Assembly: GCA_034780895.1 (NCBI GenBank)
Contig: JAUZTB010000098.1
Coordinates: 76,786,993 to 76,850,992 of the forward strand
DNA length: 64,000 bases
Direction of reading: 5' to 3'
From: Rhynchobatus australiae
Lineage: Eukaryota
Shown: one piece after another, positions 9,101-62,337 of the stretch
Layout: each line of letters starts with the position of its first letter
Numbering within the stretch: position 1 is the first letter of the stretch
Notes under the pieces: model-generated
The model's input: the letters and a program-made list of their open reading frames with translations, nothing else
What the model was told of the DNA's origin: nothing
The model's database searches: none
Program-made: the position numbers and the translations under genes

Positions 9101-12100
9101 AAGGGAAACAATCCCAGTGAAGTATTACTGAATTACTATTTAAAAAGCACTCTAAAAATGCACTAAAGACCATTTAAACTATTTTCTACATTTTGCAATA
9201 CTTCAGAATTTTCCCATTCAGACTATTTTCAGAGTCCAACAAAGCTGTAACAGCAGTAAAGTGGAACATATTTTAATTATGCCACTGGACCAACTTTAGA
9301 GACAGAAGATTTCATTAACTACATTGGCAATCACACAACGAAACCAAAAGTACAGAGAAACTGTTCGTTCAAAGCCCAGATTTTTACAAATCACCTCCAT
9401 TATCAAAGAGGTGTTATCATCTGTTATCAAAGTAACTTTATTCAGATAATATTAAGAAAAAAATTACAAGGCAAGTGAACAACACTGACTTTAAGCAATA
9501 AAAAACGTTCAATCCCGAAGTGTCCACTTCTAGTTATGATAAATTAATTTAAACTTAGTGGCTGGCATAGATTAGAACTATGAAGAATAATGAGCATTCA
9601 ATCATAACTAATCAAGCTGTTAAACAAATAACACACGGATGTTTCAAAAGTAAGATGTATTTCTTACATTGTTTCGGATTTCAGTCCTATTAATATGTCT
9701 ATTACTCTGCCATCCAGGGGTCAGAGATGGCTTGTAAAACATAGATCTATTTGCAGCTCCAGAAGCAACTGTAGGTGTCTGAAGTTTCTGGACAGGAGGA
9801 GACTGGATTTCTACCTGAAAATAAAAGTAGGAATTTAGCTATGTTTGCAACTGCAAATTAATTATGTTATTATAACACTACTTATGCAACAAATTAGTAA
9901 TCATGAATTAAATGATTTTGCTGTAGAAATATTTGAAATGACCAAATAATTTTAACAAAGTAAAATCAAAACAAGCAGTTACAAGTTTATAAAGAAAATC
10001 TGCAGTACAGAGGCAGCCCTTTTTTCCCCCCAAAACCCTTCTCCTTCCTTTTGCCAAATCAAGTAGGAAATGGTTTGCTGTACACACAGCTCAGTATTGT
10101 ATGTGGACAATTGAACTACTTTTGCCCAGTAACAGCTGAATGTACAATCAACAGTTGCTCTGGCAGTATTGTGCTTTTGCAATTTAAGCTAATTTGGCCT
10201 CTGATGCCACTGTTCTATTCCTGATCACAGCTGCAGTATTCAACTTTTATGAATACTGTAGAGCTTTTCAAGTAGGTATCTCTGTGGCACAATATCAAGA
10301 AATGCTGCTGAATCAGATGTTTGCAATATCATCACAGTTAAATATAAAAAAGGGGGAGAAGATGCCACAATCAACACAAAATTTTCTTTTGCTTATGTGC
10401 AAACTAATTATTCAACAATTATACATAACTAAATAGGAGATTACGCATTTTAATTTTATTGTGTGCTCCTTTAATAAATTTATACCATCAACATTTGCTT
10501 GGCAATAATGTTTAAATACGGTATATATACACACACTCTCTCATCCTAGTCCTTAGTCAGTTCTTCCATTTGGCAAGGCAAGAAGTGATTAGGGATAGTC
10601 AGCATAGGCTTTATGAATGGGAAATTATGTCTCTCAAATTTTTTTTTGAAGAGGTGACCGAATGGAATGATAGGGGAGGGCGGGGGACATTGTCTACATG
10701 GACTTTAGCAAGGCCTTTGACAAGGTCCCGATGGTAGGCTGGTCCAGAAGGGATCCAGGGACACCTAGCTAATTGGATACAAAATGTGCTTCTGATAGGA
10801 GGCAGAGGGTGGTAGTGGAGCTTTGCTTTTCAGATTGTAGGACTATGACCAGCAGTGTGCCACAGGGATCAGTGCTGGGTGCCCTGTTGTTTATCATATA
10901 TATTTGGACGAGAATACAAGTGGCATGATTAGCAAGTCTGCAAATGACACCAAAACTTGTGGGAAAGTGAATGGTGAAGGAGGTTGTCTTAGGTTACAAC
11001 AAGATATTGATCAACCAGGAAAGTGGGCAAATAGCAGATGGAATTTAACTTAGACAAATGTGACCCGATGCAGTTTGGGAAGTTAAAACAGGCCAGGACA
11101 TACACTGGGAGTGCCAGGGACCCCAGGATTGTTGTTGAATAGAAAGACCTAGGAGTACAAGTAAATAGCTCCCTGACAGCAGTAAGAGGTAAATAGGGTG
11201 GCGAAGAAGGCATATGGTGTGCTTGCCTTCATTAGCTGGGACACTGAGTATAAGAGTTGAGACTTCATGTTACAGTTGTATAAAACATTGGCTGGACCAC
11301 GCTTGGATTATTATGTGCAGTTCTGGTTGCCACACTAGAGGAAGGCTTGAGCTATTAAGGCGGGATTAGATAGGCTGGGACTGTTTTCCCTGGAGCAAAG
11401 GACGCGGAGGGGTGACCTTATAGGTTTATAAAATTATATGGGGTACAGATTGGGTAGATAGTCACAGTCTTTCNNNNNNNNNNNNNNNNNNNNNNNNNNN
11501 NNNNNNNNNNNNNNNNNNNNNNNNNNNNNNNNNNNNNNNNNNNNNNNNNNNNNNNNNNNNNNNNNNNNNNNNNCAGATTGGGTAGATAGTCACAGTCTTT
11601 CCTAGAGGTCATAGGTTTAAGGTGAGAGGGGAAAGATTTAAAGAGGATCTGAAGGGCAAGTTTTTTCACACAGGTGGTGGTGGGTTTATGGATGAGCTGC
11701 TGGAGGTGGTGGTAAAGACAGGTACAATTACAAATGTCTAAAAACAAATATTTGGACAGGTGCATGGATAGGAAAGGATTAGAGGGATATGGACCTAAAG
11801 CAGCCAAATGGGATTAGCCTAGAAGTGCATTTTGGCATGCAAATGGCCTGTTTCTATACTGTATAACTCTATGAATCTGTAAGGTTAAACATGCAGCTTA
11901 TTGCCAGGTAACATTTCAAACATGCTATAATTAAAAGATACAATAGCACAAGTTCTTATGTGGAAAAAAAGTGCCCTTGGAGTTAAAGTTTTAGATTTGC
12001 TGACTGTGGTAAAAGTTTCACTATACCTTTCTCATCTTGGACTGCCATCCAGTAACATCTATGGTACTTCTCTCCAAAGGCTGAAACAAAATTCATATTG

Positions 12101-15100
12101 TAAGTATCAGCAAAGATTTGTGAGGATCATTANNNNNNNNNNNNNTACAATCAAGAGGGAGGAAAGAACACAACTTGCAGAATACGAAAAAGACAATCAA
12201 TAAAAAATTTTAATGCAAAGTATTCATGGAATTATGCCTAATTTTGAAATATTCTACCTCAACTTAATGCAAGGTATTTTGTAAGCTTTGAAAGATTTGT
12301 GTACGTGGGAAAATGCCATTTTTCTAAAATAAAGGACAACCATTTTATATTTGGTGGGTTGGGGCCCAAATTTATGCTTTATACCAGATGTTAAATGCAT
12401 AAACAAATACTGTGATTATAAATTTTCTTTGTTTCTATTGAACTGAGAATTGAAGTTCTATTAATTTTTTTTTAGTTATTTTGAGGCTTTTCAATGTGTG
12501 TGTAAAATGTACAGCACATTAATTTAATAAAAATGAATAAAGTGCTATTCTCATCCTCAGATGAACTGATCAATGCCTATTATTAATATATTCCATTTTA
12601 TAAGAACTGTGGGAAGGATGAATTTGCATAGGACAAAACATACATTAATGATTAGCATCTTTCATAAAATAGATGGTTAACAAAAATCAGAAATCAAAAC
12701 GTCTCAAAATAAAGTCTTTTAAGTCAATTCTAGTCTGAACTAATCATCAATGACAGCTATTTTCACTTACTGTAGATACTGGAGATTCCACTGCAGATGG
12801 AATTCTTTTAGCATCCTGAAAACACAGTACATCAGATGTTATAAAGTTTTATACTTAAATATCTTTATTTTTGCTTCCTTTCTTTCCTCTCATGTTTCTT
12901 TATATCAATGACCAGTCCAGTCTCAAGGTGCCATCGTTTGATATCACAGAATGTCATCTGCACTGCAAAATGTTATGTTCTCATCAGTATGCTTGTTTCT
13001 TTAATTCTGCCTACATTTAAATACACCCTTTACTATAGATTCTGAAATCCAAATTATTTTCCAGGGAATAGGATACTCCACCTCAAAAGATATGTCAATT
13101 TGGATTTGGTGCTCAAACTGCAAAATGGGGAACACAGAATTTTCTGATTTACAGTTCTTCCACCAAGCCAATAATGGCCTCTTATCTGCAATTTTACTCT
13201 ACATATTTGAAAGAGGTGAATATTCCCAAACATTAAATAGGGTCTAAGAGTGAACTGCACCTGTTTTGCAGAAAAAGCTACCTGATAGCCCAAATGGCAT
13301 TTTCATATTCATGTACTTCTTTTTAAATCGTTCCTATTAGAATGAACATCAAAGAGCATCTTCATGAATTACCTTTCATCCAAATCGTTAAGTTTCAGAG
13401 GTGAGTTCTGATCAGTGCTGTCAATCAACTACAGTTAGTGGCCATTTCTGATTCAAAGGGGAGCCAATGTGTTAACTTTGGTTTAAGCATAATAATCACA
13501 TCAGCAACGTAGAAAAATATCCTTTCCTCACACTTCCTCCATGGAATCTGCAGGCAGTCCTTACTAAGATGATTTTTTTAACCATGTTTAGAAGCAAGGA
13601 ACCTGGGTATCCTGAACTTAATTAAACAGCTAATTTCTTTAACTTGTCCCAATGAAAAGAAATCTGATTTTTGATGTTACCTATATCCCACCTCCACTCA
13701 ACTATCACCACAGAAACTGTCAAGTTCCACACAAGGGAACTATTTGTTACCTAGATGAATCTACAATGCGGGTAAATGACTTGCTTAACAGTGCCATTAA
13801 AATAGTGATTAACTTGCAATTTTATTTTAAATCATGATAGTCCAGGTTCAGTTCAAAATGAAAAGGTAATTTAGATATAGGATATGAAATTGGGCTGTTA
13901 ATGCATAATTGCTCCTTTCCTATTGTAAGATTTCCAATGTCACTGCTAGTATGTCTGGATGGTAGCTTAAAATGAATGAGAAACAAGACAGGTCAGAACA
14001 TTCTTGCTTCCTTTTCATCAGTGAGAGTCTGCTACCCTTTAGCTTCAAGATAAATGTGACTGAAGTTGGAAAACTTAAGACTGATGAAATTATCATCATA
14101 AGAAATCTTCAAAAAGGAGTTTATAACCTATTAGAACAAGCTGGAGCAGAGATAAATATCTACAATGTCAATCAGGTGTATTGGAAATTATAATAGACTG
14201 CAGGAGCAAAACACCAATAAAAGTTTCCGGATATAATTTAGGGCTCTCATGACATGAAGCCCAATTTATCATCAGAACAATGTTTTAAAAAAAAATGCGC
14301 TGTTCATTAAGAAATAGATGAACCCATGATTTGCTTTCCTTCTTGAAAGAGCAAGGGGACAACAATGTTTCTTCCCCCAACAACCACCCCTCCCACTGCA
14401 ATACTATCAACCTACGTAATTTCTATACAGTCAAGATTGGTTGCTCAATACCTAGCCCCAGATCACAGAAGGGTTCTCTAATTAAATGCTGGCAACATAA
14501 AACTATTGCCTCCGCACACACCCACTTGCCATAAGGTCAGTTCTCAATCACCCAATGCCTTCCTTCTGCCACTTACTGTCTCAAGCATCATTTTTTAATT
14601 GGATCAGAGTTTCTGACCCTAAATCCTCATCTTGATTCTCTATTTCTTTATCCACAATATTCTCCAGAGCAGCCTACACTCCTCTGCATTCGCTAATCTT
14701 GAGCAACTTCCAAAATCTTTTTCCTGTTTCCTAACATGCATCCATCAGTGCTCACTGTCTTGTTTCCTAATTCACCAAAGGTTTTCACCCTCATTCTCAA
14801 AATGGCCTCCCATCCCATTGATTCCATTCTTCTGTAAACTCCAACAGCTCTGCAACTGCACTGCATTCTTCTAATTTGGCCACGAGTTACGTTCTTCCTT
14901 AACTCATCCAGTGACAGCTGAACCTTGAACCTTATAGGCTTTAAGCTCGGTAATTCTCTACCATCCCCTATCCTTCTTTAAAATCTCTTCANNNNNNNNN
15001 NNNNNNNNNNNNNNNNNNNNNNNNNNNNNNNNNNNNNNNNNNNNNNNNNNNNNNNNNNNNNNNNNNNNNNNNNNNNNNNNNNNNNNNNNNNNNNNNNNNN

Positions 15101-18100
15101 NNNNNNNNNNNNNNNNNNNNNNNNNNNNNNNNNNNNNNNNNNNNNNNNNNNNNNNNNNNNNNNNNNNNNNNNNNNNNNNNNNNNNNNNNNNNNNNNNNNN
15201 NNNNNNNNNNNNNNNNNNNNNNNNNNNNNNNNNNNNNNNNNNNNNNNNNNNNNNNNNNNNNNNNNNNNNNNNNNNNNNNNNNNNNNTGTCTTCCTTGGCA
15301 GTATATTTAACCTGACTATGCTCACTTCAAGCACTTCATAGTATTACACAAGTGTTACCTTTGCAGTGATGGGAACTCCACCTACAGCAATATTGGAGCT
15401 TCTGTTCTGCCCTAAGTGACAGTGAATGAACATTGTACACATGCTTCAAAACACTTTCAAATTGCAAACTTTGAATTGCAAAGTTCACACGCAAACAAAA
15501 GCTCCATTAAAGAGACTTAATTTGTAACAATCCTCTTCAGCATGTGGTGCTCATTTCTTTTGGAACAACACTCTCCTCAAAATGAGATCCATACCTTCTC
15601 TTTCAACAGACATCAAGGTTGACAAATATACTCCTTAATCGCATCATGATTGAAATAGGATGTGAAATAAAGTCAGATGCCCAAAGGAAATCAATTTACC
15701 AGAGTCAATCCATTACATTAACTTTCAATACCTTCAATGTGATAAATAAAGTTACTAGTACTATGCTGACTTCTAATACCTTGGAATTAGAACAGGCCAG
15801 CATGCATTAATTATTCTTAAAATAAGTCATATTTTGAGCCAAGTATTTTAAAAGCAAACACGAAATCAGCAAGAACAATAGAATTTTATTAATACCCGGA
15901 AACACTGGTGAAATGAATTCTACCACAAAAGAAACAGGTTTTGTTATAGAAATGCCGCATCAGAGACCTTACTTGCAAAATTACATCCAATACAGAAAAA
16001 AGTTCACAATAGAAAGACGCAATTTTACTATATAGTTTGCCATAAACTAATCTAAGATTTCCCCTAAGAGATCCACCTGCAGTGAAAGGTCTCTCTTATG
16101 TCAACAACAAATAAGCTTTAAAAAAATAAATTAACCAGTGCACAAACATTTAAAATTCAAACTATGAAGACTTACTGCTAAGGGGCTTGACATCTTTTCT
16201 AAAGACTGGAGAATGCGCCTGGCAGTGGCACTTGTCACTCCATAAGATGTTGAACTTGCTGGCTTTGCTTTCATCTGCCTCCTTATTGGAACCTAGTGGT
16301 CAATAAGACTAGAATTTATTTCAATAATGCATCAGGGTACTATTCTTTATGTGGAGAAAAATGAGCAGAGTCAAAGAACTGATGTGAATGACTCTCATTC
16401 TAACATTCAACATGTGAAGTCAATGGAAATCAAATGCATTAAGTATCCATGTCTCTTAGTGCCTACCATAATCACAAAATGCTTGGTTTGTTCTATTGCG
16501 ATAGTTAGGAGTAAAAACAAACAGAACCAAAGTAGGCCATGCATCTGATTAAGCTTGTTTCACCATCCTATACGTCAAATCCAATTTTCCACCTAATCTG
16601 CAAGGATTAGGCAGAAAATTAGATTTGAGGTACCAAATCCAAACCCCAATGCCTTCACCACTGTTCAAAAAGATCAAGGCCTAACTTTTACCTTAGCTTC
16701 AGTTTCCTGCAATAACACTAAATATCCTGTCTAAAATGATCCTGGTTTTGAATATATGAGAAAATGAGAGTTCCCAGCCTGAAGAAAATGTCCACGAGGT
16801 CTTCAGAGTTTTATATCATGCACAACACTTTATTAACAAAACTTTGTTTTACATGAGAATTTGTGTACTTATCCCTCCAGCTGCCAAATGACTGCTGAAA
16901 ATGCCTCAGTATCAAACTGCTCTGTACAAGCTGTGCTGAAAACAAAACAAAGATCTCAGCCNNNNNNNNNNTCATTGGAGTCAAGAAATTGAATCCTGTC
17001 AAACTGCTGCATTACAGATCAACTTGGCACAAGGTATGTGGCATATCACTACTCAATGCCATACAACTTGGGAGAAAATGGAAAAGCTGTGCAGTAATTT
17101 ACTCAGCATGGTTAGAAAATAATAACTGATTTCTCTGATTTACTCAACAAGGAAAGCAGATTTAAAACAAGTTTAGGCAAACAATAAAATTCTTATGGAT
17201 TCATGCTTATGTTTTTAATGTCCATACCTACATTTAGAACATTGCAAGTCATACTACCCCAGTCACTCTGCCTAAAAGTCAATAAAAGAACTGAACTCTA
17301 TGCACCAACTATTTGGGCTTCCTGGATACAGAATTTCATTTGTTAATTCTTATGCTGCTGCAAAAGGCCAAATTGAGAATTCATGCTTAAAAAGTTGATG
17401 TTATTTGTTACGAAAACAACAAAAGCACATGGCTCAACCAAGATACAGGAGGACCAGTGCATCCCTAATTTGGCTCCATATCAGTGGCATTCCAAAATAA
17501 ATTCAAGGAACTAAGGGTTTACAGTTCTTGCATTGATTACATCTACATGAACCCGTGGCTTAATACAAAGTATCATAAAGCATAATAATGAAATCTTTCA
17601 GATTATACTTTTGTTGGGCTCCCAAAACTTAAAGAACTCTTGCTGATGTGAAGCATACATTAAAAGAGTACAAAATTAATTGAGCAGAACAAAGACATCC
17701 AATTATCTTTACCTGATAAGGTGTGCCTCGCATTTGAGAAGTTCTTCCTGCTGCTGCAGCCCCACCATATGTAGTCTTGCCAGGGTAGAAAGGGGAATCC
17801 CCAAGTTGGCTTGAATTTAGCAATGATGTACTAATAAAAGACTGCAAAAGGCATGAGCATTTTGAATTTCAGTTTTACAGTTTCACTTATAGTGTGTGTA
17901 TATATATATATATATATAAAATGATTAGACAAAGTAAATTCTATCTCATATCACTACACTTACAGGAGATGAACTGCCAAAGGCCGTGAGATTAAAAGAT
18001 GGCTTTTTCAAGCTTGTGGCAGGTTGTTGAGGAACTGATTGAAAGCGATCCCCCTCTGGAGACCACAAAGGTGGCAAAGAAGCATTCCTTGAAGTTATTG

Positions 18101-45859: not shown

Positions 45860-47381
45860 AAAATGATGCAATAATAAAAAGTTTTTATTTAATGTTTACA
45901 ACTAGATAGCAGAGGGGCTCAAAAATCTCTTTGAAATAGGGTACATCAAAAAGTTTAGGAGCCTCTGGTATCCAATGGTATTTTAATTCACAAATTAATT
46001 AACAGCTACACAAGATGCTCAGCATTTCTGGCCTCTGTATAGATCCCCCAACTGCTTTAATATTTAATTTCAAGCCTGACATTACTACCTGCATAGTATC
46101 ATCATACTGGATTGGAAGAGATTCCATAGAGACAAAAACTTGGTAAGATATTTACATGTCAAAACTCAAATATGCAAACAAAATACACACAACAGTTACA
46201 TGGTTCCAGGCTGTAGAATGTATTCTAAAACACTGAAATGCTGTACCAATTAAATACAGTTTTGCTGAAATAATATATATTACAACTCTGTACATAGTCA
46301 TACAAAAACACTACAAAGGGAAAATATATACAAAAAACTAATTCAGCAGCTCTTGAGCAAGTCCCAAGTTTTTCATTATTAAAATTAACAATCGGCCTTT
46401 CATCATCACATTTTTCCAAACAGGCTGACTCTTAAGTACCTACAATTTTGCACAACTCTATGTACACTGGATGGCTTTGAAACAGTCTTTAGTCCATCAG
46501 ATCATACCTTCACTGCATGGATGCAGTAAACCTTTCAACTATATATAATCCTGTATATAAATTATTTTAACCAAATCATCCAATGAGATCTTTCATTATA
46601 TACACTGTTGCAAAATGTACCTTTACTTTGCATTCTTCAGCAAATGCATGCACACATACTCTCATAAGCCAATACAATAGATTTTCTGTCTGCTCCCTAC
46701 ATTCTTGCAGTAATACTGTTTAAGCACTAAACTGCCAAAAGGCAAATGAGACTACAGGTGTTTAGACTTGTAACATGCAAAGCCTCAAGCCACAGGTCCA
46801 AGCTAGTAGTGGAACCAAGACCCATGTGAAGCTTAATCAGCAGTGGTAAACTTTGGAAGACAACAACCGCATAGAATAATCAGTTTTGTTTAAATGTGCT
46901 TATTAGACAATAGTAATAAGGCAGCATGATACAGAGTAACAAAAACACGGCACATTAATAAAATCAAAAAAGTGCCTACAGCCTAGAACTCAATTTTATG
47001 AAGGTCAAAATTAAAATTAAGAGGTTCCTGATTCTAATCAAGATCTTTGGTAATTAAGAACCAATTTAGAGATCTCTGTGACTTGCATCCAAATCATTTT
47101 AATAAAAATACCTATTTACTGATTAAAATCTCAAGTTACTTTGTAATGCAGAAGGTGATGTTCTCATAGCTGGTTAAGGGTATTTTACATAGGCTAGCCA
47201 TATTTTAGTGTACTTCAGATGTGTTACCAGCAAATATACTTTATTTTTTACAAAAGGCAAAATATTAAAGTTTTATTCTATCCTCTATATCACAGAGTAA
47301 TATAAACAAAAACTGTACAAGTATAAAATGCTCCATTAAGATGCCTATACAGTAACATGTAATAAGTGCAAATGTTGCAGT
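45860..47381 (-). other. Probable KIF13A 3'UTR with AATAAA at 45889-45884
   Basis: Repeat-free AT-rich stretch after the stop; AATAAA on the minus strand followed by a T-rich downstream element. Other AATAAA hexamers lie near 47240 and 47272. Confidence 0.55.
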
Positions 47382-47662
47382 TCAGTTCGTCCAGGATTTC
47401 CTGTTCTGCTTCTTGGAGGATACAGTAACTCCTGATTTGTGAAGTGCTGTTCCTTCAGGTTTGGTGGATGGGGTCACCTGTGACCTCTGGCGATTGACAC
47501 TTTTCCGCTTCTCATGACCTGTGGATGCCTGCCCTTCAGGTAGGGTGCTGTGCCGCTTCACTGTATTGGAGACCTGAATAAGCCGGTTTGGACGAACAAA
47601 AACACCACAATTTGGATTGCAGCGAAAGTATTCCTTTCCTTGAATGGTGCCTTGATGTTTCC
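47382..47662 (-). CDS. KIF13A: KIF13A last coding exon (second half of CAP-Gly, ends NRKSWTN*)
   Basis: Acceptor CATGTAG, phase 1; GKHQGTIQGKEYFRCNPNCGVFVRPNR; stop TGA at 47384-47382. Confidence 0.9.
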
Positions 47663-50600
47663 CTACATGAGTTATAAATGCAAAAAACAGCACTGAAACT
47701 ATGCCCTCTTCTGAAAGATAGAGGGCAAAATATGACATTTCAAACTTAAAGCCATGAGGAACTATGTGATTTGGACTTGACAATATCTAAGCTTGAGGAA
47801 GAGATTGCTTCAAAAAAAAACTAAAGGCTGTACAGATGGCCATAGCAACCATATATAAAAGCCTAGTTCATTTCCTCGAAAGTGCAATTACAAATAAGAA
47901 CATAAGAAACAGGAGGAAGCCAATCAGCGTTTTGGGTCTGCTCCACCATCCAATATCCAATTTGCCTTGGCACCATTTCCATGCTCTCCCCCAATATCCC
48001 TCAACTCCCTCGTAGTTCAAATGTCAATTTCCACCTTGTATATTAATCCACCTCCACAGCCCTCTTTGGTAGACAATTCAGAAGATTCACGACCCTTAAC
48101 GAAGAAATTCCTCCTCCGGCTTGTGTGGAAAACCCTTATTCTGAAAGAATGCCCATAATTCTTGATACATGTTTCGATAAAATGACCTCTCATTCTTCTA
48201 TAATCCAAAGGTCCAACCTTTGCAAACTTTCTTTAATATACCAACCAGTTCATCCCAGAGATCAACCTAGTGAAGCTTGTCTGCACAGCCTCCCATACAA
48301 ATATATCCTTACTTAAATATTGAGTTCAAACCTGTATGCTGAACTCCAGATGCAGTCTCACCTCTTATGCCTCTTAAAATAAAGGCCAATATCCCATCTG
48401 CTGTCTTATACTGTACCTACATGCTAACATTTGGTGTTCCATGTGCAAGGTTCTCCAAATCCCTTTATTACATTCTGAAATCTCATTCCTTCTAAATACA
48501 AAATTATTTTTACATTCTTCCTTTCAAAGTGAAGAGGCCTCACATTTTTCCAGATTATATTCTATCTGCCAGCTTCTCGCTCCACTCACTTATCCCACCT
48601 ATAATCCTTTGCAAGCTCTTTGTGTCCTTCTCAGATCTTGCTAACCCATCCCATCACTGCATCATCTGCAAGTTTGGGTACAGTACACTCAGTCCCCTCT
48701 TCGAAGTTACACTTGTAGATTATAAATAACTGAACTCTCAGCACAGATCCCTCTGGCACTCCACCTGTTACTAACTGCCAATTTGACTAGATAAATAAGC
48801 TAAGAGATGGATCAGTAGATGAGCAGTGGTAGATATTTAAACAGCTAGTTCATAATGCTCAGCAAAAATTTCTCTCAACATGAAAGAGCAATTCCATGAG
48901 AAGGAGCCATACTTGGTTAACAAAAGGGGTCAAGATAATGTTAAATCAAAAGTAAGGCTAAGTAGCAAGGGCTGGTAGTGGAGGAGAGGACTGGGAATTT
49001 TTCAGGAACCAGCAACTAAAGACTGAAAATCTCATAAGGAGAAAATTGATTTTGAGGGCCAACTTGCATGTTAAAGTCAAAACAAACAGTAAAAGTTTTA
49101 TGGATATTTAAAAAGGAAGATAGTGTAAAGTGTAGGACCTCTAGAGAATGAAGATGTTGAATCAATATCAGGAAAAGGCAGATACACTAAACCAATGCTT
49201 TTGCATCAGCTTTCATAATGGAGGTATGAAAATGACAACAGGTGGGCTATTTTCAAATAGGATGGAAGATCTTGTAAAAAAATTACTATCACAAGCGATG
49301 AGGTATTAGAAAAACTCATGGCATTAACAGCAGATGAGTTGCCAGAGTCCAATGATTTACAACCAAGGATCTTAAAGGAAGTGGCCGCAAGATAGTGAAA
49401 TGGATTAGGTTTTTCAAAAGAATTCCAAGAGGGTATGTGTGGATGTTCAATGGAGTTGGGGGGGGGGGGTGTGTAAGGCAAAAGACGGGAAACTACAAGT
49501 AAGTTAGTTTTAGCATCTTGCCAGCAATAGACATTGAGTCAATAATAGAAGAAATAGCTAATTATTTAGAAAAATGTAATCTAATCAAACCAAGTCATCA
49601 CAGCTTCAAGAAAGGTAAATACTATTTGACAAATTTTCTAGTTCTTTGAGGCTGTAACAAATAGAGTACATAAAGGGGAATCAGTAGATGGTGTGTTTTT
49701 CAGGGTGGAAAGATGTAACCAATGATCAGCTCTTGACTGTCAATTATTTACTGTTTATATTAATGACCTGGGAGGAATGTGTAGAATGTAAGGTATCCAT
49801 ATTTGCTGATGGCATGGAAACAGATGGAAGGGCACTTTGCTAAAATGGTATTATGAATCTGCAACAGATTATAAAGAAATTGAATGAGTGGATGAAACTT
49901 GGCAAATGGAGTTGAATGTGGGCAAGTGTGAGGTCACATACTTCAACTAGAGGAATCAAAAGACAGATTATCTAAATGCAAAGCAAAGGATCAAAATGTA
50001 CCCAATTTCTTTGCTTTTGTATACCAGTGGGAGCTGTTAATGTGTGCTTTTATCTTATTTGCCAGTTTACTTTCATATTGTATCTTTTTTTTATATTTTT
50101 ATGTTATCCTTTATTGGCTTCTTAAAATTTCCCAATCCTCTGGCCTACCTCCAATCTTCCAACATTGTTTGCCTTTTCTGTAAATTTAATTCCATCCTTA
50201 ACTTCCTTAGTCAGTCATGGACAGTGCATCCTTCTTGCAGAAAACAAGTAGTACAAAATGTTTCCTTAAANNNNNNNNNNNNNNNNNNNNNNNNNNNNNN
50301 NNNNNNNNNNNNNNNNNNNNNNNNNNNNNNNNNNNNNNNNNNNNNNNNNNNNNNNNNNNNNNNNNNNNNNCCTTAAATATCAGCCACTGCTGACCCACAG
50401 TCTTATCCTTAAATCTATTTTCCCAGTTCACACTGGCAACTGTTCTCATGCCACTGTATGAGATTTTAAGTTAGGACACTACTTTCAGACTCAAACTTTA
50501 AGGAAATGAACAAATGATTGTACATCTTTGTAATATATTAAGTTACAATTCATAATTGTTCAATACTTAACTGTAAGGATCAATTGCATTGTCCAAAAGA

Positions 50601-53600
50601 ATGATTTAAATGGTCAGCGTTTTTGAGATGTACATTTGCTTAACAGTTAGAAAGTAGAAAAGGAGCAGTGTATGTTTTCTTTGCAAATTGGAGGGAAGTT
50701 GCCCCCAAGGGTTGGTGTTGGGATCATTTAATTTGTGTTTTACCATGACAGATCTGGATTTCTATACAATTTCAAATTTTTCAGATATCACAAAACTTGG
50801 AAATGTAATTAACAGTGAGGAGGACAGGACAGAGGAACTGGCAAAATGGCAGTCTTGCATCAGTTGACATCACAGGAATAGTGGGCCATTCAGACCCTTG
50901 ATGGTTCTGTAATTCAATCCAATCACAATTTATCAATATGATCATGTATCACAGTCCGTGAAATCAACCAATTACGGTGACAATATGTTATTACTCACCA
51001 ACTGGAGTATCAAGCTCAACTCCAACCCAGACACCAGTGGAGAAATCCACTGCACCAACATATCGAATGGTTCCATTCTTGTTGCTTCCAACAGATGTAC
51101 GTCCTCCCAGTATGATCCAGCTTGGTAGAGGCTCACACTGCTCTGCAGCATTACTATCTTCAATATCTGATAAATCTGAAAGGTTCCTCATACCAGAGTT
51201 ATCTGGGCTGGTAGAGTGATCAGAGGCTTCTTCATGGTCGGCTTCTCCACAAAACAGTGGGTTCTCTACAGTGTTTGCTAACCTATAATCAAGAATGGTT
51301 GTCTGTGATTGGTTATGGGCATTGCTGCATGAATCTTCAGGAAGCTCAGAAGTATCATTTGCACATTTTACTGCAGGATTTTGCCACTTTTCATCTAATT
51401 CTAGACTATCAACAGAAAGTCTATTCGAGTCATCAGAGGAACCTGTACTGTAAATCATGGGCTCATCTGGTAGCTCAAGGTCCTTCCTTGCCTCCTCCGC
51501 ACCCTGAAAATCTGTAAAATCCTGGCTGTTGAAAATTTCTACATTCACTATTGAATTGAAATCATCACCTCGTCCGTCTTCTAATATGCTTTCATGTGGA
51601 TTTAATGTATATGTGCAGGACGATGAATCTGGTGCATACATATCTGGGAGGGTTCTATAAACAAGTATAGATTTAGACTCAATAAACTGCTGCAATACTG
51701 AGGTTTCTTTCAATAAGGCACTATTTTTTGGGAGGGATGTGTTCTTTTNNNNNNNNNNNNNNNNNNNNNNNNNNNCCTGATTTCCATTTTCCTTCTCAGA
51801 AAATAATTTTAAATCATATTTACTCATCTGTGAAATAGTATTCTGTAGCTCAGAGTCTCGTGACTGATTACTCATCTGTTCTGTGTTCTCCGTACCAGCG
51901 AATGCCACATCAGAGAGTGTTACATTAGAAGCACTATGGGAGAAGTAACCACTAGTCATACTGCTGGTAGTTGGACTACGAGAAACTTCATTTTCAAGGC
52001 AGCGAGAACTCAGGAATTCTGGCTTTGAAGAAAACAAATCCCTGTTTTCAAGGCTTGCATTATATACATCAAAGTCTGCAAAATCTTCAGGAATGTATGG
52101 CTGGAAACCATGACAGTGCTGAGAAAGACCTGTTTTCTTGCTGAGATTCTCCACTTCATAATCCTCCTCTTCAGAATCCTATAGCAAGAACATTTGCAAA
52201 ATGATCATATTTCTGCAGTTCATCACAAAGTCAGAAAGTTAGTGTCATATTTAGGTAAGGAAGCATAGGAGATCAGAGGGACACATGATTTCTGGCTGGA
52301 TTAAAAGCTATAACCAATTTATAATCTTGTTTATAATTCAGTAGATAATTCATTTACTTTCATTAATTTAAAGTTTGTTGAAGTATCCTGATTGCTGAAG
52401 TTCTGCTTTGGATGTCAAATGTGTAGACCCGAGTATTCAACTTGCAATTCACAAATTTAATTTTGAGTTGAAAAATGGATGCACAAGGTCAAAGTACAAA
52501 TTATGCAATTTAAAAAAACTAGATAATATTTGGTATTTAATATAGCTCAATCTTAGGACATAGTTTAGACTTTGAGAATGATCTTTTATTTATATTCTGT
52601 CTGTCCTTGAGTTCAGTATTGTGATCACAAAATGCCTTTGAGCTTCCTATATCATGAAACCTCACTCATAAGGAAGGATTTAATAGCACGCAGTGGAAGG
52701 TTGCCAATGACAAGATCTCAAGTGTTTTTCTGACATATGCTTCTCCACCTTAAAGGGTGAAAGGTAAATAATTCATCAAGTTTAATATCACATGATGGTT
52801 GGCACTATTTTCTCCAAAGTCAATTGAAGAATACCTGTAGCTGTGAATGGAAGATCTCAACAACTATTGTGGGAATTTAGTAATGACATTTTTCACCAAG
52901 GCAAGGATGAGATAGGGTGGAAGAAAAAGAGGAGCTTTGTCTGTAGATGATTTAACATGTCTTTAGGTCATCCAGAGCACTACAAAAAAAAGTGGACATC
53001 ATTGTTGAGGAAAATATAGAAGGCAAAGTCTTGGAAATGAGAAATAAGACAAGTTATTTGTTGAGCTTCTTCTAATGATGCATACTTTCAGAGAAATATT
53101 GATCAGGAACAAAAAGAACATTTTATTTCTGTTGTACTGGTATCTACCCAAGTTGATTGATGGAACATTACAGAAAGATAGCTGAAGGTCCCTCTCCACT
53201 TCCTCCAAGTTCTCTTATTTTAAAAAGTGAAGAAAAAAAGGGACAATAATAAGAGACAAATGATGGTTGTGCTCTTCCATGTAATGTATTCAAAATAAAA
53301 GTGCATTGTAAAATGAAGATCTAAAAAGTACTCCATGCAACGTTTTCAAAATTTTGTCAAAATCATCANNNNNNNNNNNGATGTTGAGGAAAAGGGTGGA
53401 AGTTGTGGCTTTTGGCCATTGCATGTCAACGCTTTAGCAGTCCAAATGTGAAAGATGAGCAGAAAAAAAAATTGCTCTGGAGACTTCCCTCTTAAATAAT
53501 TGAATAGATAATCTTAAAATAATAACCAAACTCTATTAAAAAGCATGGTATATAAATTTCAAATTTATCTCCATATTTTCTCAAACAGATCTTCTTCAAC

Positions 53601-56600
53601 AAGTGCCATGTCATAACCATTTTAAATCTTGATGAATTACTCCCAATACAATTTCAGAATCGTGTAGTGATGTGATTAGATTAAATTCATAGATGAGACT
53701 TTATTTAATGATGTAAGATGCAAATCATACACTGAATGTTGCTAGAATTACAGAGCTAAGCAAGCTGAGAAAAAGCCTAAAATAATTAACTTTCCTATTA
53801 TTAATAACTCTCCACATGTAAATATTTATTCTTTGCATAGTATAAAAATTGAAAACCTATCCACACAATGTCCCAAAAGAAGGGCAGCTAGATTAAAAAA
53901 AAATAATTTTCACATGAATTCTGGATGTCAATTAGGGATGATTAGAAAAATCCAAAAATTCAAACATGGCCACAGGTTTTTCTTTTGAAAAGAAAGTTAT
54001 CAATATTGGCAAGGCATTAGATTCATGAGAAGTGTCTGTGAGGAAGAGATAAAGTGTGTACATTTTGACATGACCTAAATATGCCTATGTGGACTAGAAA
54101 AAGGACTAGAAAGAAAACAGTCTCTCTCTGCAAAGTCCTCAGCCTTGATCAAACTGCCTTCAAGAGTTTATTTTAAGTTATACTAAAATCACGAGGAAAG
54201 GTTTCCTCGGTTAGTTACTTGGTGAAATTATAAAAAGATACATTGAGAATGTTTTGATAATTTCATCATCAAACTGATCAGTGAAAGTATTCCATTCATG
54301 TGATTAAGGCCTGTAGCGTCCACAGTGAGTTGGTAGACTGGATTCAAAATTGACTTAGCCACAGAAGACAGAGTGGTAGAGGGGTATTATTCTGATGGGA
54401 GGTCTGTAGCCAATGGTGTCCGTAAGGAATACTGCTGGGCCACGTTGTTTGTGATATTTACAAATGACTTGGGACGAAAATGTAGATGGGTTGATTAGCA
54501 AGTTTGCAGATGACATAAAAATTGGCATAGTTGTGGGTAGTGAGGAAGGTTGTCAAAGGATACAGCAGAATATGGATCAATTGGAAATATGGGCAGAAAA
54601 ATGGCAGATGGAGTTTAATCTGGACAAGTGTGAGATGTTGCACTTTTGGGAGGTCAAATGTAAGAAGAAAGTATACAGTAAATGACAGGACCCTTAGGAA
54701 CATTAATGTACAGAGGAATCTTGGGGCGTAAGTTTATAGCACCCAGAAATTGGCAACATAAATGTATAAGGTGGTAAACAAGGCATATGGCATACTTGCC
54801 TTCAATGGTTGGGGTGCTGAACATAAAAGTTAGCTTGTCATGTTGCAGCTGGATAATACTTTAGTCAGGCCACATTTTGAGTATTGTTGCAGTTCTGGTC
54901 GTCATATTACAGGAAATATATGGAAGCTTTGGAGAGGATGTAGAAGGATGTTGCCTGAATTGGAGAGCATTAGCTATAAAGAAGGGGCCAGACAAATTTG
55001 GATTGTTTTCTCTGGAGCTTTGGAGGCTGAAGGGCAACCTGATAGAAGCTTATAAAATTATGAGAGGCATAGATGGGGTAATAGTCAAGACCTTTTTCCT
55101 TTTCCCCAAGGAAGAAATATCAAATACCAGACAGTAGATATGTCAAACACCAGAGGGCACGCTTTTAAGGTTGGTGAGGGGGGTGGGGGTGGAGGTTAAA
55201 GGCAATTTTTTTTTGCGCAGAGAGTGGTAGGTGCCTGGAATGCATTACCAAGGGTAGTAATGGAAGCAGACAGTTTGGTGGAGTTTAAGAGGCCTTTAGA
55301 TAGACACATGAATATGAAAGGAATGGAGGAATATGGATGATACACAGGAGGAAGACATTTTAGTACAAATTAGCATCAAGATCGGCACAACATCGTGGGC
55401 TGAATGGCCTGTCCAGTGCTGTACTGTTTTATGTTCAGAGAATATAGTTTTAAGGTGAGCAGGGGAAAGATTAAAGGAGATTTACAAGGCAGTTCTTTTT
55501 TTTAAAAACACAGAGTGGTAGGTGGTTGGAACATGCTAGGGGAAATTGAGGAGGCAGATTTGATACAACTTTTAAGAGGCATTTAGACATGCACATGAAC
55601 AGGCAGGGAATTGAAAGATAGACCATATGCAGGCAGATTGGATTAATTTGGCAGCTTCATCAGCATAGACATTGTGGGCCAAAGGGCCTTTTCTTGTGCT
55701 GTACTGTGTTCTAAAACTATTTTGATTTGTGCACTGTAACTGTGAAACATGATTCCTGTTAGCAAACCAAAACTCCGATTCTGCGATCTGCAGTGCAAAA
55801 ACTGCATGCCCCAAATGCTCGTCCTTAACGTGTATGGTGGGTTATTAAAAGATTTAAACCTTTACCTTCCACCTAGGTCTTTATATCCTAACCAGGAAAT
55901 AGTTTGACTTTGTCTCAGCTGTAGCACTTTAAAATCAACGAATCATGCTGGGAGATTTTTAGTCATTTGATTATCTTTTTGTAATTAAAGTCAATTTTCA
56001 ATTTAGCATTTGTGGATTAACAAATAGTTTTAAAATCCAGGAAGAGTTCCATTATTCAAAAGACTATTCTGGGAAGAGAAAATGTACTGAGTTAGAGCAA
56101 AAGTATTAGCACAGTATACCTCCAGGAAAAAAAACACTAGTGGGGAGGCAACTAATCAATTTTCATTGGTACCAACAACTAGTTCCTATAAACAGATGAA
56201 ATAAATCATATTTATAAAATTCACCAAATATTCACTGCAAATTTCACAATCATCCAAGAGTAGGTTCTTGGGACATACATGCTAAAACTTCTTGTCTTTT
56301 AGACTTTATGTCTAAATGAGAATTCATAATATTCCAATGTGTTTGGGGTTTAATGTGATCATAACAGAGTAAAACTTATCAAAATAGTTATGCCATTACA
56401 ATTCAAACAAAGTGGTTGCCAATTTAAATAGCAAGATGGCCTGTACTGTCACTTATCGTTACTGATTACCTGTGCAGTAAATATGGTACGAACTATTGAT
56501 GAAGAATGAAGAACATAAATTAAAAACCCAGCATAATGTTGACCCAATTGGGCCAAACAAGAGACCACAAGTTAGAAGAGGGTGTGCACAAATTTTATTG

Positions 56601-59600
56601 CGCTTTGATTGGACTGCAGCTTGAATACTGTAACGAGTTCCTGTTGCTTTAATAAATTCACATGCTTGATGTAGTGCAGACAGAATACTCCTTAGCATCT
56701 GAAGACTAAGCTACAAGAAGTAATAGATAAATATCTTCCAATTCTGGAAAATTTAGATGTCATATTTAATATTTTTAGCAATATACTTGAGGGAAAGGAA
56801 AATGTAGGTCCAATTGGAACCATCAATTGATTTGTAGAGATAAAACAGAAGAAAAAGGTTCAAATCAATAACAGGCAAATTTAAGAGACATCAAGAAATG
56901 CACCTTCATACAGAATGATCACTTTCTGAAGTAGACTTATAATGTTGTTGGTGATAGATTTATAATTATTAGAAACCAAACTGGATTTTGAAGACATTAA
57001 GGACATCCACTTGTCTTCCTCATCCATAATTAGAGATGTTTACAAATTTGCACAAGACAAAACACAAATTTACTGAATGAATGATGAGGCAAACTAAGTC
57101 GGTCGATTATTAATTCGACTGAATCCAAGGAGGATGTAGAAATGATGATCTGTTCTTGAACACAAATTAAACTTAGTCTGAATAGAACAATTGCTTCTGA
57201 AAGTTTAAATTAATTAAAGTATTGGGGATGGAGAAAAATACATCCTTTTATAATTAGAACAGTTCAAAAGAATCTGAAACAAAAAAATGAACAAAGCTGT
57301 TTTACTTTCTCAGTCAAAAACACACAAAGGCATACATTTGTGAGCTGCTGAAGGGAGGAGTGTTCAGTGAAGCATTTAAAGTGAAGTTAAAATGTAATGC
57401 ATGGTTGTGAAACCATTGTTCATTAAAGTACTGCATATTTAGTTCTACTTTGTTCATGTTAAGAAAATGATTTTGTATTAAAACTTTTTAATGGCAATTT
57501 TCCATTAGTTTCTGAGTCTGACAAATGCAGACATAATATTTCATGTTCTATATTTATGTCACAGCATCTAAATTAAGTAACAAAGTTATTCAAACAAACG
57601 TATTTAGCTTTAAATCACATTCAGATGGAAAATGAGATTGGATTCTAGATCTAAATCACAGAAGAGTAAAGCATGATTTTCAAATAGTACAAGGCATGTT
57701 ATATGCTTGTGTCTCAGTTAGTCTATAATCCAAGAATGTTAATTACCTATTTTGCCAACATTTGGAAGAAAGCAAATAACAATCCTGAACTCATCTGTAG
57801 AGCAGAAAGAAAGGCATGGCTGCATTCATAAATGTTTCAACCATAATCCTTGTGAAAGGACCTTAATCCCACCACCAAGTATTATGACATTAAAAAAAAC
57901 AAAACTTACAAACGTCTCGTCATTTTCGTTATTGTTTTCTACTGACATGCTGTTGGCACTGCTTCCTGCGGGCACAACACTGCCACTGCTATGTAACAGC
58001 ATGTTTTTATCCTGAGGGGGAGACATGCTCTGCAATGGTCGAGACATACAATGGCACATCATCACACCATAAATGACAGTTCATTAATCAGACCACAAAC
58101 ATGCAGTTAGTTTATCAACAAACATCAATATTCTACACAAGCAATGGTGGATTGCACTTCATGTACAAAAATAACTTGTACATCTTCATTATGCATGAAT
58201 GACTCAGTAGATTTTATTTTAAACTGAAACCTGCTGTACATAAAACAGTGTTGCAATTTGTCATTAATCATGCAAAATTGGCATAGGTACTTTGTGCACA
58301 ACAGGGAAGCTCATTCTCCATGCTATTCAAAATGATGATTATTTTTACATGCACTTGGAGCTTTTCTTTTACGTAGAACTGGTGCACGCACAGCTTCAGG
58401 TTAAAGTGAGTTTTAAACCTTCCCTGCTTAGCTCTCATGCAGATTATTCAATTCAGTTATTTGCGCTCTACTCATATAAAAGGAATTTTACACTAAACCC
58501 AAATAGCGTATGCTATTGAGCAGCCACAACATGAATCTTTTATTCAACACACATAAAATGCCGGAGGAATTCTGCAGATGCTGGAATCTGGAGCAACACA
58601 CACAAAATGCCGGACGAACTTAGGTCAGACAGCATCTATGGAGGGAAATAGTCGATGTTTTGGGTCGAGACCCTGGAAAGGAAGAGGGCAGAAGCTGGAA
58701 TAAAAAGGTAGGGGGAGGGGGAAGAGCACGTTGGCAGGTGGTAGGTGAGTCCGGGGTGGGGAGGGGGAGAATTAAAGGGAGTGATTCCCCCCTCTCACCT
58801 GAACATCTATTCCCCNNNNNNNNNNNNNNNNNNNNNNNNNNNNNNNNNNNNNNNNNNNNNNNNNNNNNNNNNNNNNNNNNNNNNNNNNNNNNNNNNNNNN
58901 NNNNNNNNNNNNNNNCTCCCCCACCCACCTTACCCCCTTCACCTGGACTCGCCTATCACGGGCCAGCTTGTGCTCCTCCCCCTGCCTTTTTATTCTGGCT
59001 TCTGCCCACTTCCTTTCCAGTCCTGATGAAGGATCTCGACCCGAAATGTCCACTGTTTATATTGCTCCATAGATGCTGCCTGACCTGCTGAGTTCCTCCA
59101 GCATTGTGTGAATGTTGCTCCAGATTCCAGCAGCTGCAGAATCTCTTATGAATCTTTTATTGTTGCAGTAAACTCTTTTATGAGGCAATATAAATTAGAT
59201 TAAAGGTGATACTATATTTTTACAATTTTTCAGGTAGCATTAGAATTTGGGCTTTCCTGCAATATATATCATCTGTTTTCCCAAGTATCAGCATGATCTT
59301 TCTCACCTTTCTTACTTCATTGGTTATGTCTGTAGAGATGTCTAGATCAACCCTACTCTGTGGATATAGATTGTGGTACTATGGATACAAAGATGAAATT
59401 GAGATTCCATATCATCAGGTCTCTATCCAATGGACTGATTATCTAACTTAATCCCACGTCTGGGGTCTCAAGACTCCACTTCAGATGCTCCTAGGGTTTC
59501 TGATTTGCTTGCATTGGTTTGCTGTCTGCCTCCACAGCCTGCAGTCCCAGAGCCCAGCCTCCTTGGTTTCTGCAGCAAATGCTGTGAGCTAAATTAGTCA

Positions 59601-61457
59601 CATCCCTGGACTGAAGCAATAACTGCAGTGCATCTAGGGATGTGTACTCAAAATATAGAATGGTATTTAAGATAAAACACATCATAGACATGATTTAAAG
59701 TGCTTTGAAGTATAAATGCATTCATGTAGTTTAAACCTTCCCTCCCCCAGACAAAGAATATGCTGACTAATATTTGGAAAATACTGCAATTAATAAAACT
59801 AGATATTACTTTCTAAAATTTTGACTGTGTTGCAGGTAAGGCAGACATGATTTGCTTTTCTACAACTCAGCCAAATATTTTTTGCAAGTTTACCCCACAG
59901 TTTAGTTAGGGCTTTAATTATTTGCCTCTATCTACAGCAGTCATATACTGCTCTGAGCAAGATAACCAATGAGGGCACAGAACATTGCTACTTACAATGT
60001 GTCATGCAATTTGCACAAGTACCACAATTTTGCATAATGGTTATAGATACTGATATCAATAACTAACTTGTGTTTTGAACCAAAAATAATGGCAGTAATG
60101 GACGGAGTCATCATGCAAGAACTAATGGAACAAAGATTCTGGGACGTTCAATACCTGAAGCAGACAGGAGTGACAAACTGCCAGATTAAATTGAAGCCTA
60201 TCAGATATTGTAACCTTCCTATGATTTGAGATTGTTTTTGCTGCAACAACTTGCTTTGCCGAACTGTGACCACAGAAGGATAGAGGTAAATCATGAGAAC
60301 GTTTGACCTTTCTTTTGTTAGGAAAGAATAATGTGGGATATTCCATGACAGGTTCACCTTCTGCTTTGGATCCTGACGTCTTCCCACTATTTCCTCTCCC
60401 TTCCCTATTCTTGCTCTGATTAATATTTAAGAACTCTGATTTACTGAGGACAATAAATAAAGTTGGCTATGCAATGAATTAAGATTGATTGCCTATTTAT
60501 TACAACATCGGAGCTGGCCATTCGGCCCATCAGGTCCATGCCAGTCCTCAGCAGACCAATTGTATCAGTCCCATTGCTGCTCCCCCACCCCCCCCCCCCA
60601 ATTTCCCTGTATCCCTGCAACTTATTCTTTCTCACACATGCCTGTCAACTCCCCTTTGATTCATTTGCCATGTACTTACATGAGGGGCAATTTACAGTAG
60701 CCATTTATGCAACAGCAAGTCTTTACGATGTGCGAGCAGAGCACCCAGCAGAAGCCCACATGATTATGGGAAGAATATGCACAGTCACACAAATGGCACC
60801 CAAGATCAGGATCAAATCTGGGCCATGAGAGCCAGAAGGCTGCGGCACTAACTGCTGTGCAACTATGCTCCCCCAAGATCATTATTAAGTGAAATCTCTC
60901 CCATCTATCCCCTGAAATTCAGGTTGTTAAGCCTTAATTTTTATAGTTACCAGCAAATAAAATATTCGGAGAATATCACATGGCAGAGGATAAAAATCTC
61001 TCCTAAGTAAATGTGTCTTTACCAATTCCCTTGCTTAAGTATTCATGGAAATAAATTAAATTAGTTTTTGACCTAAAATAAATTGTTCATTGTAGCAAAG
61101 TTATAGAGAAATTGTTAGTACCAAAATAATTTTCATGGGTTCATCTATTCAAAGTTTAAACCCTAAGAAATTACCTTCTAACATACAATAAGCTCTTCAT
61201 TTAAGTGTGTAATATTCAAGTCTCACCACATTAAAAGGAAGCTAAACGTATAAAGACACTGCATAGTTGCCTTGGCTTTCATTATTTAGTTTAAATAGCA
61301 TGATTTACCTCGTGTGCAAGAAGAGGTTTAGTTTCTAAAGGTTGTTTGTCTTTTCGTTCTTCTCGTACAGGCAGAAGTGATTTCAGAAATTTTGGTGGCT
61401 GAGCAGAAAATGCTTTTAGTGGACTACCCAGTGAATGGTGACTCTCCGTTGCAATAC
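47382..61457 (-). CDS. KIF13A: Kinesin-3 motor KIF13A, 3'-terminal exons (gene begins beyond the right edge)
   Basis: Exons encode KAFSAQPPKFLKSLLPVREE..PLL, SMSPPQ.., DSEEE..QPYIPEDFADFDVYNASLENR..EVSRSPTTSSMTSGYFSHSASNVTLSD, matching the KIF13A tail rather than KIF13B. The gene lies next to NUP153, as in human. Confidence 0.9.
47895..50490. mobile_element. Cluster of decayed CR1-type LINE fragments in alternating orientation (minus 47.9-48.8 kb, plus 48.8-50.0 kb, minus 50.0-50.5 kb)
   Basis: Reverse tail ATAAGAACATAAGAA, reverse VPEGSV motif near 48750, forward ATTTGCTGATGG (FAD) near 49801; the same tether segment appears on both strands (about 48820 and 50380). Confidence 0.7.
50999..52178 (-). 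CDS. KIF13A: KIF13A large penultimate exon (DSEEE...; ends with first half of CAP-Gly)
   Basis: Acceptor TGCTATAG, donor TTG|GTGAGT; frame stays open across a 27-N gap; ends GTIRYVGAVDFSTGVWVGVELDTPV. Confidence 0.92.
54310..55436 (+). mobile_element. 5'-truncated CR1/HER1-like LINE
   Basis: ORF-track peptides GLISKFADDIKIG..DQLEIWAEKWQMEFNLDKCEMLHF, LVRPHFEYC, GLFSLE..LKGNLIEAYKIMRG; 3' tail GTGCTGTACTGTTTTATGTTC. Confidence 0.9.
55440..55715 (+). mobile_element. Second CR1/HER1 3'-end fragment abutting the previous LINE
   Basis: Repeats the TTTAAGGTGAG..CAGAGTGGTAGGTG..TGGAA..TTTAGAC..GGGCC..GCTGTACTGTGTTCTA terminal segment. Confidence 0.75.
57910..58029 (-). CDS. KIF13A: KIF13A cassette-type exon (SMSPPQDKN...VVPAGSSANSMSVENN...)
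   Basis: Acceptor CCATTGCAG, donor TTT|GTAAGT; 120 nt, phase 0-0; resembles the alternatively spliced SMPPPQ...SMPVEHN exon of mammalian KIF13A. Confidence 0.8.
58546..59147. mobile_element. Non-autonomous element with about 110-bp inverted terminal repeats (Penelope-terminus derived)
   Basis: CTGCAGATGCTGGAATCTGGAGCAAC..CAGCATCTATGGAG..GGGTCGAGACCCT at 58573-58675 is the reverse complement of 59030-59140. Confidence 0.75.
60500..60872 (-). mobile_element. Decayed HE1-like SINE
   Basis: Reverse-strand tail (GGCCATTCGGCCCATC), V-domain remnant (GAGCACCCAGCAGAAGCCCAC) and head remnant. Confidence 0.6.
61309..61457 (-). CDS. KIF13A: KIF13A exon (GIATESHHSLGSPLKAFSAQPPKFLKSLLPVREE...PLLAHE)
   Basis: Acceptor CACTTACAG, donor GAG|GTAAAT; 149 nt, phase 1 to 0. 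Confidence 0.88.
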
Positions 61458-62337
61458 CTGTAAGTGAAATAAATGAAAGGAAATAACTTCTACAGAATAA
61501 TATAGGATAATAATTCTTGACTAGTATGACACAAATGCAATACTGATCAAATACCAAATGCAACAAACATTAATATCCAGTTCAGTAAAAAAAGATTTCC
61601 TTTAAAGTTTAAAGACCCCACTTGTGACATCAGAGTACGAATGAGAGATGAGCTTCCCTTTAAATACCACGAACATTACCTCTCACATGCAATGATTGCT
61701 GAGTTAAGATAGTGAGATCACCAAGGTGGGGGGTGGGGGGGGGCGGAGGTTGGGGAGAGGGGGTCAGAAACAAACAGGGGAGAGGGGGAAGAAAGTTATA
61801 GAAAGAGGGACAGGAGAGTGTAGTGTTTTAGGGNNNNNNNNNNNNNNNNNNNNNNNNNNNNNNNNNNNNNNNNNNNNNNNNNNNNNNNNNNNNNNNNNNN
61901 NNNNNNNNNNNNNNNNNNNNNNNNNNNNNNNNNGCGGGGGTCAGAAACAAACAGTGGAGAGGGGGAAGAAAGTTATAGAAAGAGGGAAAGTAGAGTGTAG
62001 TGTTTTATGGGGCTGGTTGAGGTTTGAAACTGTGGAGTAATTTGAAGACAGATGTTGAGACACAGCTTAAATGTAAACCATGAGGGCAGAAAGCATCAGA
62101 GTCATCAACCAATGGCACGGTGTGAATACAGCATGGGTATTCAACTTTTGGATGAGCTCAAAGTAATGGACAATTTGATGGAGCGAGGCCAGTAGGAGTG
62201 GTTTGGAATAAACAGGTCAAGGTTAAAATAAAAGACAAGAATGAGGATTGCGGCAGCAAATGAAGTGAGATTGGTCAGAGTTGGAGCAACATAATCAAGG
62301 TGAAAATGAGTGATGGCAATGTGCGATTTGAAGCTTT

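Follow-up and report, generated by a model that had tools for sequence, protein, structure and literature searches.

A complete C-terminal CAP-Gly domain in KIF13A of the ray Rhynchobatus australiae

The CAP-Gly exons of KIF13A

The window analysed here is a stretch of 64,000 nucleotides from the ray Rhynchobatus australiae (assembly GCA_034780895.1, contig JAUZTB010000098.1, positions 76,786,993 to 76,850,992), whose minus strand carries the 3' part of the kinesin gene KIF13A; all exons described below for the window lie on that strand. The last two coding exons together encode a whole CAP-Gly domain. The penultimate coding exon (exon A; 50999..52178, 1180 bases) has an open frame of 393 codons comprising KIF13A tail motifs, a long low-complexity linker and then the first half of the domain (51003..51107), with 27 masked bases (51749-51775) upstream of the latter. 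The coding part of the last exon (exon B; 47382..47662) supplies the second half, a basic tail and the stop codon (47384-47382). Between them lies a phase-1 GT..AG intron of 3336 bases (47663..50998), which splits the first Gly codon of the motif GKHQG; the motif itself spans the splice joint (47649..47662, with the first base of the Gly codon at 50999), and the protein ends in RKSWTN (47382..47402, including the stop codon). When each exon half was scored alone against PF01302, for which the curated cut-off is 26.5 bits, the first matched profile positions 2-36 with 36.7 bits and the second positions 39-65 with 37.0 bits. Exon A shows 79% identity with skate KIF13A, and exon B 76% identity with residues 1877-1972 of the same protein.

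Among nine pairs of cuts tried, 50999/47662 was the sole GT..AG pair, and the frame stays open to the stop; without splicing, exon A meets a stop two codons into the intron. Contigs of four out of five sequencing runs that we guessed to be RNA skip exactly these 3336 bases (joint 47661/50998); the runs belong to one study of a related species, about 96% alike, and are represented by contigs only. Exon A appears as one piece in contigs of three runs, covering 50998-52178/52180, and contigs of three runs cover 47000-47661, thus including the 3' untranslated part of the last exon (47000..47381). Polyadenylation-type signals AATAAA occur at 47277 and 47245, although they do not mark the sole transcript end, because the contigs continue past 47000. 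The fifth run does not cover the CAP-Gly exons, and the joint is not listed in two genome-sized runs, which show depth in 30/30 bins, intron included. Together, these results confirm that KIF13A of this ray ends in a spliced, complete CAP-Gly, as a first-pass annotation made from the letters alone had proposed: the joint is canonical and joined exactly there in contigs, the frame is open, both halves exceed the Pfam cut-off and the RKSWTN end follows. Separately, the last intron contains repeat-derived sequence (47900-50100), whose contig depth becomes very high near 49790-50050 and 48480-48610.

A small alternative exon of nine codons plus stop (56156..56185; AG before 56185, stop at 56158-56156) lies upstream of the two CAP-Gly exons and matches, in tblastn searches with isoform ends, the ends of seven short RefSeq isoforms from five batoid species. 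Since neither AATAAA nor ATTAAA occurs in the 860 bases that follow it, this exon may be a poison cassette and not a last exon. Judging from these isoform models, rays probably make KIF13A forms both with and without the CAP-Gly. The same searches located a cassette exon of 120 bases (57910..58029, with AG and GT borders), which some batoid isoforms include and others skip; in human KIF13A, a stretch of 35 residues is skipped at a similar place (PMC9081326). A further coding exon lies at 61309..61458, and around 30 more exon pieces, past the window edge, lead up to the motor domain.

The identity of the gene as KIF13A, claimed in the first-pass annotation from NUP153 synteny and from the tail motifs that we indeed find in exon A, is borne out by the following comparisons. 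First, skate KIF13A aligns in 33 collinear tblastn pieces along about 130 kb of the same contig, accounting for 1893/1972 residues, and these pieces, with the Pfam layout of the skate protein, give the kinesin-3 arrangement of motor, FHA, KIF1B and DUF3694. In summed tblastn score, skate KIF13A reaches 3630 on the window gene versus 1731 on the paralogue, and the reverse holds for KIF13B. Second, a tree of the first 1200-1400 residues (motor and stalk, tail excluded; 31 rows, quick IQ-TREE run, support by the Shimodaira-Hasegawa-like approximate likelihood ratio test, SH-aLRT, only) places the window gene beside skate within KIF13A (SH-aLRT 99) and the genome's own paralogue within KIF13B (SH-aLRT 100); the placental KIF13A proteins devoid of CAP-Gly are nested in the KIF13A clade, and amphioxus KIF13, itself with a CAP-Gly, falls outside both. 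Third, in a tree of the CAP-Gly alone (32 of 35 intended rows, those of this genome taken from exact splices), the 16 KIF13A domains group together in a single clade (97/92), apart from KIF13B, which argues against a late copy from KIF13B.

The same genome contains a separate KIF13B on another contig, near 131.72-131.80 Mb. Its motif is GKNDG, it has the RKSW end and, as in KIF13A, a phase-1 intron interrupts the same Gly. This KIF13B extends five residues past the usual RKSW end, like other cartilaginous-fish KIF13B entries.

Downstream of KIF13A, on the same strand, the window contains NUP153 exons (4627..16292), identified by PF08604 in 3/5 open reading frames scanned (16134-16292, 6186-6521 and 4627-4794); NUP153 is also the downstream neighbour in the human gene order. 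A GC-rich stretch at 28600-29400, upstream of these exons, is probably the NUP153 promoter and first exon; the one open reading frame within it gave no Pfam match.

Distribution of the domain and its absence from placental entries

A search with exon A retrieved 1060 matches, and the best 120 all carry PF01302 in their database annotation (120/120). The matches listed come from sharks, skates, chimaera, coelacanth, bichir, sturgeons, gar, salamanders and turtles, as well as from crocodilians, birds, lizards, platypus and marsupials. The survey of C-termini across jawed vertebrates found a whole CAP-Gly in 115 of 123 non-placental KIF13A entries, the rest being six bird models that run on past the first half of the domain into the intron, and two fusions with a neighbouring gene. 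In the latter, the turtle and swallow gene models join the first CAP-Gly half of KIF13A with a sirtuin-5 (and NOL7-type) gene; they are probably annotation errors, and hint that in reptiles and birds another gene lies downstream. In platypus, echidna and every marsupial entry the domain is retained, with GKHDG, and KIF13A from stickleback and one anchovy entry has it with GKHNG. The C-terminus [RG][KR]SWxx is present in 111 of the 123 entries, and RKSW occurs near the end of 113/120 KIF13B entries. KIF13 from amphioxus, acorn worm and coral has the CAP-Gly and lacks the RKSW end; the single lamprey entry is incomplete and uninformative on the domain. These comparisons support a CAP-Gly and an RKSW end as ancestral for jawed-vertebrate KIF13A and common to KIF13B.

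For mammals, we took the best 120 of 941 matches to the opossum tail, leaving the domain out of the query. These comprise 16 marsupial entries, all with a CAP-Gly (16/16), and 104 placental-type entries, of which 102 are from named placentals (primates, carnivores, bats, horse, even-toed ungulates with whales, and elephant) and two are unnamed. None of the 104 placental-type entries listed contains the CAP-Gly core, and a profile of the non-placental domain and tail retrieved no remnant from these 104 proteins (best E 4.8). Likewise, mouse KIF13A is a short form of around 1750 residues (PMC9081326). The loss is therefore likely placental and not mammalian at large, because platypus, echidna and marsupials retain the domain while the placental-type entries do not. 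Thus, of the first-pass proposal that the jawed-vertebrate ancestor had a KIF13A with CAP-Gly and RKSW end that mammals lost, the ancestral state stands and the loss has to be confined to placentals, where it probably happened once.

The placental tails suggest how this loss may have occurred. Placental entries track the marsupial exon up to Asp-Gln or Asp-Lys, some 60 residues before the domain. After that point, 41/104 continue with Val and align to the marsupial exon for a few residues, which is consistent with a GT donor; the remaining ones end in tails of six residues (49/104), eight residues (10/104) or other types (four), the short tails including GSTTAP, from whale, and GGTTSR. Human KIF13A isoforms a and d correspond to the read-on and short-tail forms, respectively (PMC9081326). 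Read one base off, GKHDGTVK allows G, S, T/M, T/M, A, R/P and stop. When opossum places in the needed frame were ranked for six-residue tails by residue match and base distance, the start of the old last exon came first of 1930; moreover, whale GSTTAP plus stop fits the shifted exon with zero base changes. A stretch of platypus exon A, read in the alternative shifted frame, came closer to the tails (0.55 base changes), and was rejected as their origin as it is not conserved in marsupials. From the protein tails, we consider it moderately probable that the domain disappeared through a new phase-0 splice donor around 60 codons upstream, which would skip the first half of the CAP-Gly and join the old last exon, with its phase-1 acceptor, out of frame, yielding the placental tails of 6-8 residues. 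Several points tell against this route: if both shifted frames are counted, the ranks are 7 and 10 of 3860 in opossum and 15 and 21 of 3968 in platypus; the 10/104 tails of eight residues require an insertion; and the putative mechanism was conceived after seeing the tails, from proteins only, and from tails that are related to each other.

The GKHQG motif and the predicted role of the domain

The motif GKHQG of the window departs from the literal GKNDG of CAP-Gly domains at positions 3 and 4. The first-pass annotation took both changes as possible marks of altered or relaxed binding of C-terminal EEY/F tails. For His at position 3 this reading found no support: His occurs in all 115 whole KIF13A domains and in 41/132 other CAP-Gly motifs among library representatives, and an N-to-H change is reported to leave peptide binding unaffected (PMC3806363). 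Gln at position 4 is a rarer residue, present in 13/13 cartilaginous-fish entries, which represent six species and include chimaera, and in 0/102 other KIF13A, 0/114 KIF13B and 0/132 representative motifs. KIF13B motifs are GKNDG in 113/114 cases. D-to-Q is thus truly unusual, but, being fixed from chimaera to ray, it looks tolerated and not decayed. In the last loop of the KIF13A domain (window 47600-47625) sharks and rays also have a second Cys, where other vertebrates have Tyr or His.

The other groove residues of the domain are intact. We mapped groove residues by motif and by alignment to dynactin, with the numbering of PMC11229396, and the Tyr, Phe, Trp, Lys, Tyr-Phe, Phe and Arg groove or core positions are invariant in the 13/13 cartilaginous-fish entries and present in the window. 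The skate domain, with the same motif, matches PF01302 as a whole with 85.9 bits and is predicted to adopt the CAP-Gly fold, with a predicted local distance difference test (pLDDT) of 92 from an alignment of 41 rows and template modelling (TM) scores of 0.87-0.90 to solved CAP-Gly domains; a prediction made from the skate domain without an alignment (pLDDT 53) was set aside. In addition, the KIF13A CAP-Gly is more conserved than the linker in 7/7 taxon pairs, which share taxa.

On tyrosinated microtubules, the CAP-Gly of human KIF13B raises landing about twofold and makes runs longer (bioRxiv 2022.08.09.503328). By analogy, the ray domain likely works as in KIF13B, and would provide a second, tyrosination-sensitive microtubule contact that favours landing and longer runs on tyrosinated microtubules. 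KIF13A and KIF13B would both owe the domain, along with its intron and the RKSW end, to a gene duplicated in early vertebrates; KIF13A would have fixed N-to-H early, cartilaginous fishes then adding D-to-Q, and the KIF13A domain would have stayed under a selection somewhat looser than in KIF13B. Taken as a whole, the reading of an intact KIF13A CAP-Gly that works like that of KIF13B, is ancestral in both paralogues and was lost once in placentals has, in our opinion, a good probability of being right.

A number of observations weigh against it. The binding and motility role of the KIF13A domain is a prediction for every species, and none of 132 other CAP-Gly motifs has Gln at position 4. The KIF13A domain is also less conserved than that of KIF13B in 7/7 pairs (61-84% vs 75-90%; pairs share taxa), although the KIF13A motor is as conserved as that of KIF13B, or more, a difference that, on these identities, is a mild and family-wide relaxation and not decay in rays. 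Rays carry annotated KIF13A isoforms without the domain, so the CAP-Gly form may make up only a part of ray KIF13A transcripts. The support for the splice comes from contigs of one study, from a related species and with a guessed RNA status; the family tree is a quick search without bootstrap; and the named placentals sampled do not include xenarthrans, rodents or several other orders.

An unlikely alternative, though the best of those considered, is that the cartilaginous-fish domain folds but that D-to-Q altered its partner, entailing a weaker or null reading of tyrosination, or the binding of another acidic-aromatic tail. The position concerned is Asp or Asn in 132/132 representative motifs and Asp in 114/114 KIF13B; the change from Asp to Gln requires two base changes and is fixed in every cartilaginous-fish entry; the Asp of a trypanosome CAP-Gly participates in a water-mediated network with the peptide carboxylate (PMC3806363); and KIF13A domains evolve faster than those of KIF13B. 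However, the Lys, His, aromatic and Arg positions are intact, the charge seems dispensable, given Asn in 33/132 motifs and Ala in one bird KIF13A entry, and the faster rate extends to the whole of KIF13A and is not confined to carriers of Gln. Moreover, the tested determinants named in PMC3806363 are Lys and Asn, not Asp.

It is very improbable that the domain is a dispensable leftover, with most non-placental KIF13A made without it via early stop exons and placentals having fixed that state. Such a scenario would accommodate the short isoforms ending at the 56185 exon in five batoid species, the six bird models that continue into the intron past the first half, and the fact that placentals manage without the domain. 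It does not sit well with the open frame, invariant core and RKSW end retained from chimaera to opossum, with a domain identity well over that of the linker in all seven pairs, or with the spliced form being the one assembled as contig in four runs. Finally, it is scarcely credible that the window gene is a KIF13B copy, or that the domain passed to KIF13A from KIF13B at a late stage, through conversion or exon shuffling, because, although the closest solved sequence is the human KIF13B CAP-Gly (2cow) and papers tell KIF13B from KIF13A by this domain (PMC8576264; PMC9081326), both trees separate the two paralogues, the cross tblastn scores contradict a KIF13B identity, and there is a distinct KIF13B with GKNDG on another contig.

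Relation to the literature and to known systems

The literature searched, which covers few subscription journals, yielded no description of a KIF13A CAP-Gly or of its disappearance. In published work, CAP-Gly is treated as the mark of KIF13B (PMC9081326; PMC8576264; PMC11151104; PMC3442412), has been used to assign orthologues (PMC8576264; PMC3442412), and KIF13B is called the only kinesin with this domain (bioRxiv 2022.08.09.503328). The description of KIF13A as lacking a CAP-Gly does not fit the window gene and is true only for the placental entries; the view that only KIF13B has the domain thus likely reflects the placental loss. The first-pass annotation had allowed for lesser novelty if the domain were already documented outside mammals, and the outcome is divided: the KIF13A CAP-Gly is already visible in public protein records through automatic annotation, which limits the surprise, and is apparently unremarked in print.

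The orthologue rule based on CAP-Gly fails outside placentals: under it, KIF13A from fish, frog, bird and marsupial would be wrongly labelled, and results obtained with KIF13A from these animals may not transfer to the human protein. The loss can be placed on the placental stem and offers a natural experiment on the choice of modified microtubules by a cargo motor, while GKHQG is a small and old natural substitution useful for probing the role of the motif Asp. The useful outcomes are the placental timing, a splice route by which the loss may have occurred, and a motif question now reduced to a single residue. Going further, we see an even chance that all jawed vertebrates but placentals have two tyrosination-reading kinesins, that the placental ancestor made KIF13A blind to tyrosination by one donor, and that the GGTTSR end of human isoform d comes from the old CAP-Gly exon, translated in a shifted frame; if so, the division of tracks between human KIF13A and KIF13B would be a placental invention.

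Compared with known systems, the window gene is closest to other non-placental KIF13A records (Amblyraja radiata XP_032869740.1, Callorhinchus milii XP_042188164.1, Monodelphis domestica and platypus F6ZZ18), which have the same domain order, with PF01302 and the RKSW end; those from cartilaginous fishes also share GKHQG. All these records are automatic annotations, and there is no difference of kind between them and the window gene. Human and mouse KIF13A (1749-1805 amino acids; PMC9081326) have the same motor, FHA, stalk and tail up to around 60 residues before the domain, but placental KIF13A ends about 190 residues earlier, without CAP-Gly and RKSW. KIF13B/GAKIN (CAP-Gly in PDB 2cow) is a paralogue with the same architecture, the same intron in the domain and an RKSW end, although it forms a separate clade, has GKNDG and a slower domain evolution, and shows Leu where KIF13A has the groove Phe. 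More distantly, the CAP-Gly domains of CLIP-170, p150Glued and TBCB (PF01302) share the fold and core residues (TM 0.84-0.90), whereas Gln at position 4 is found, within our sample, only in KIF13A of cartilaginous fishes.

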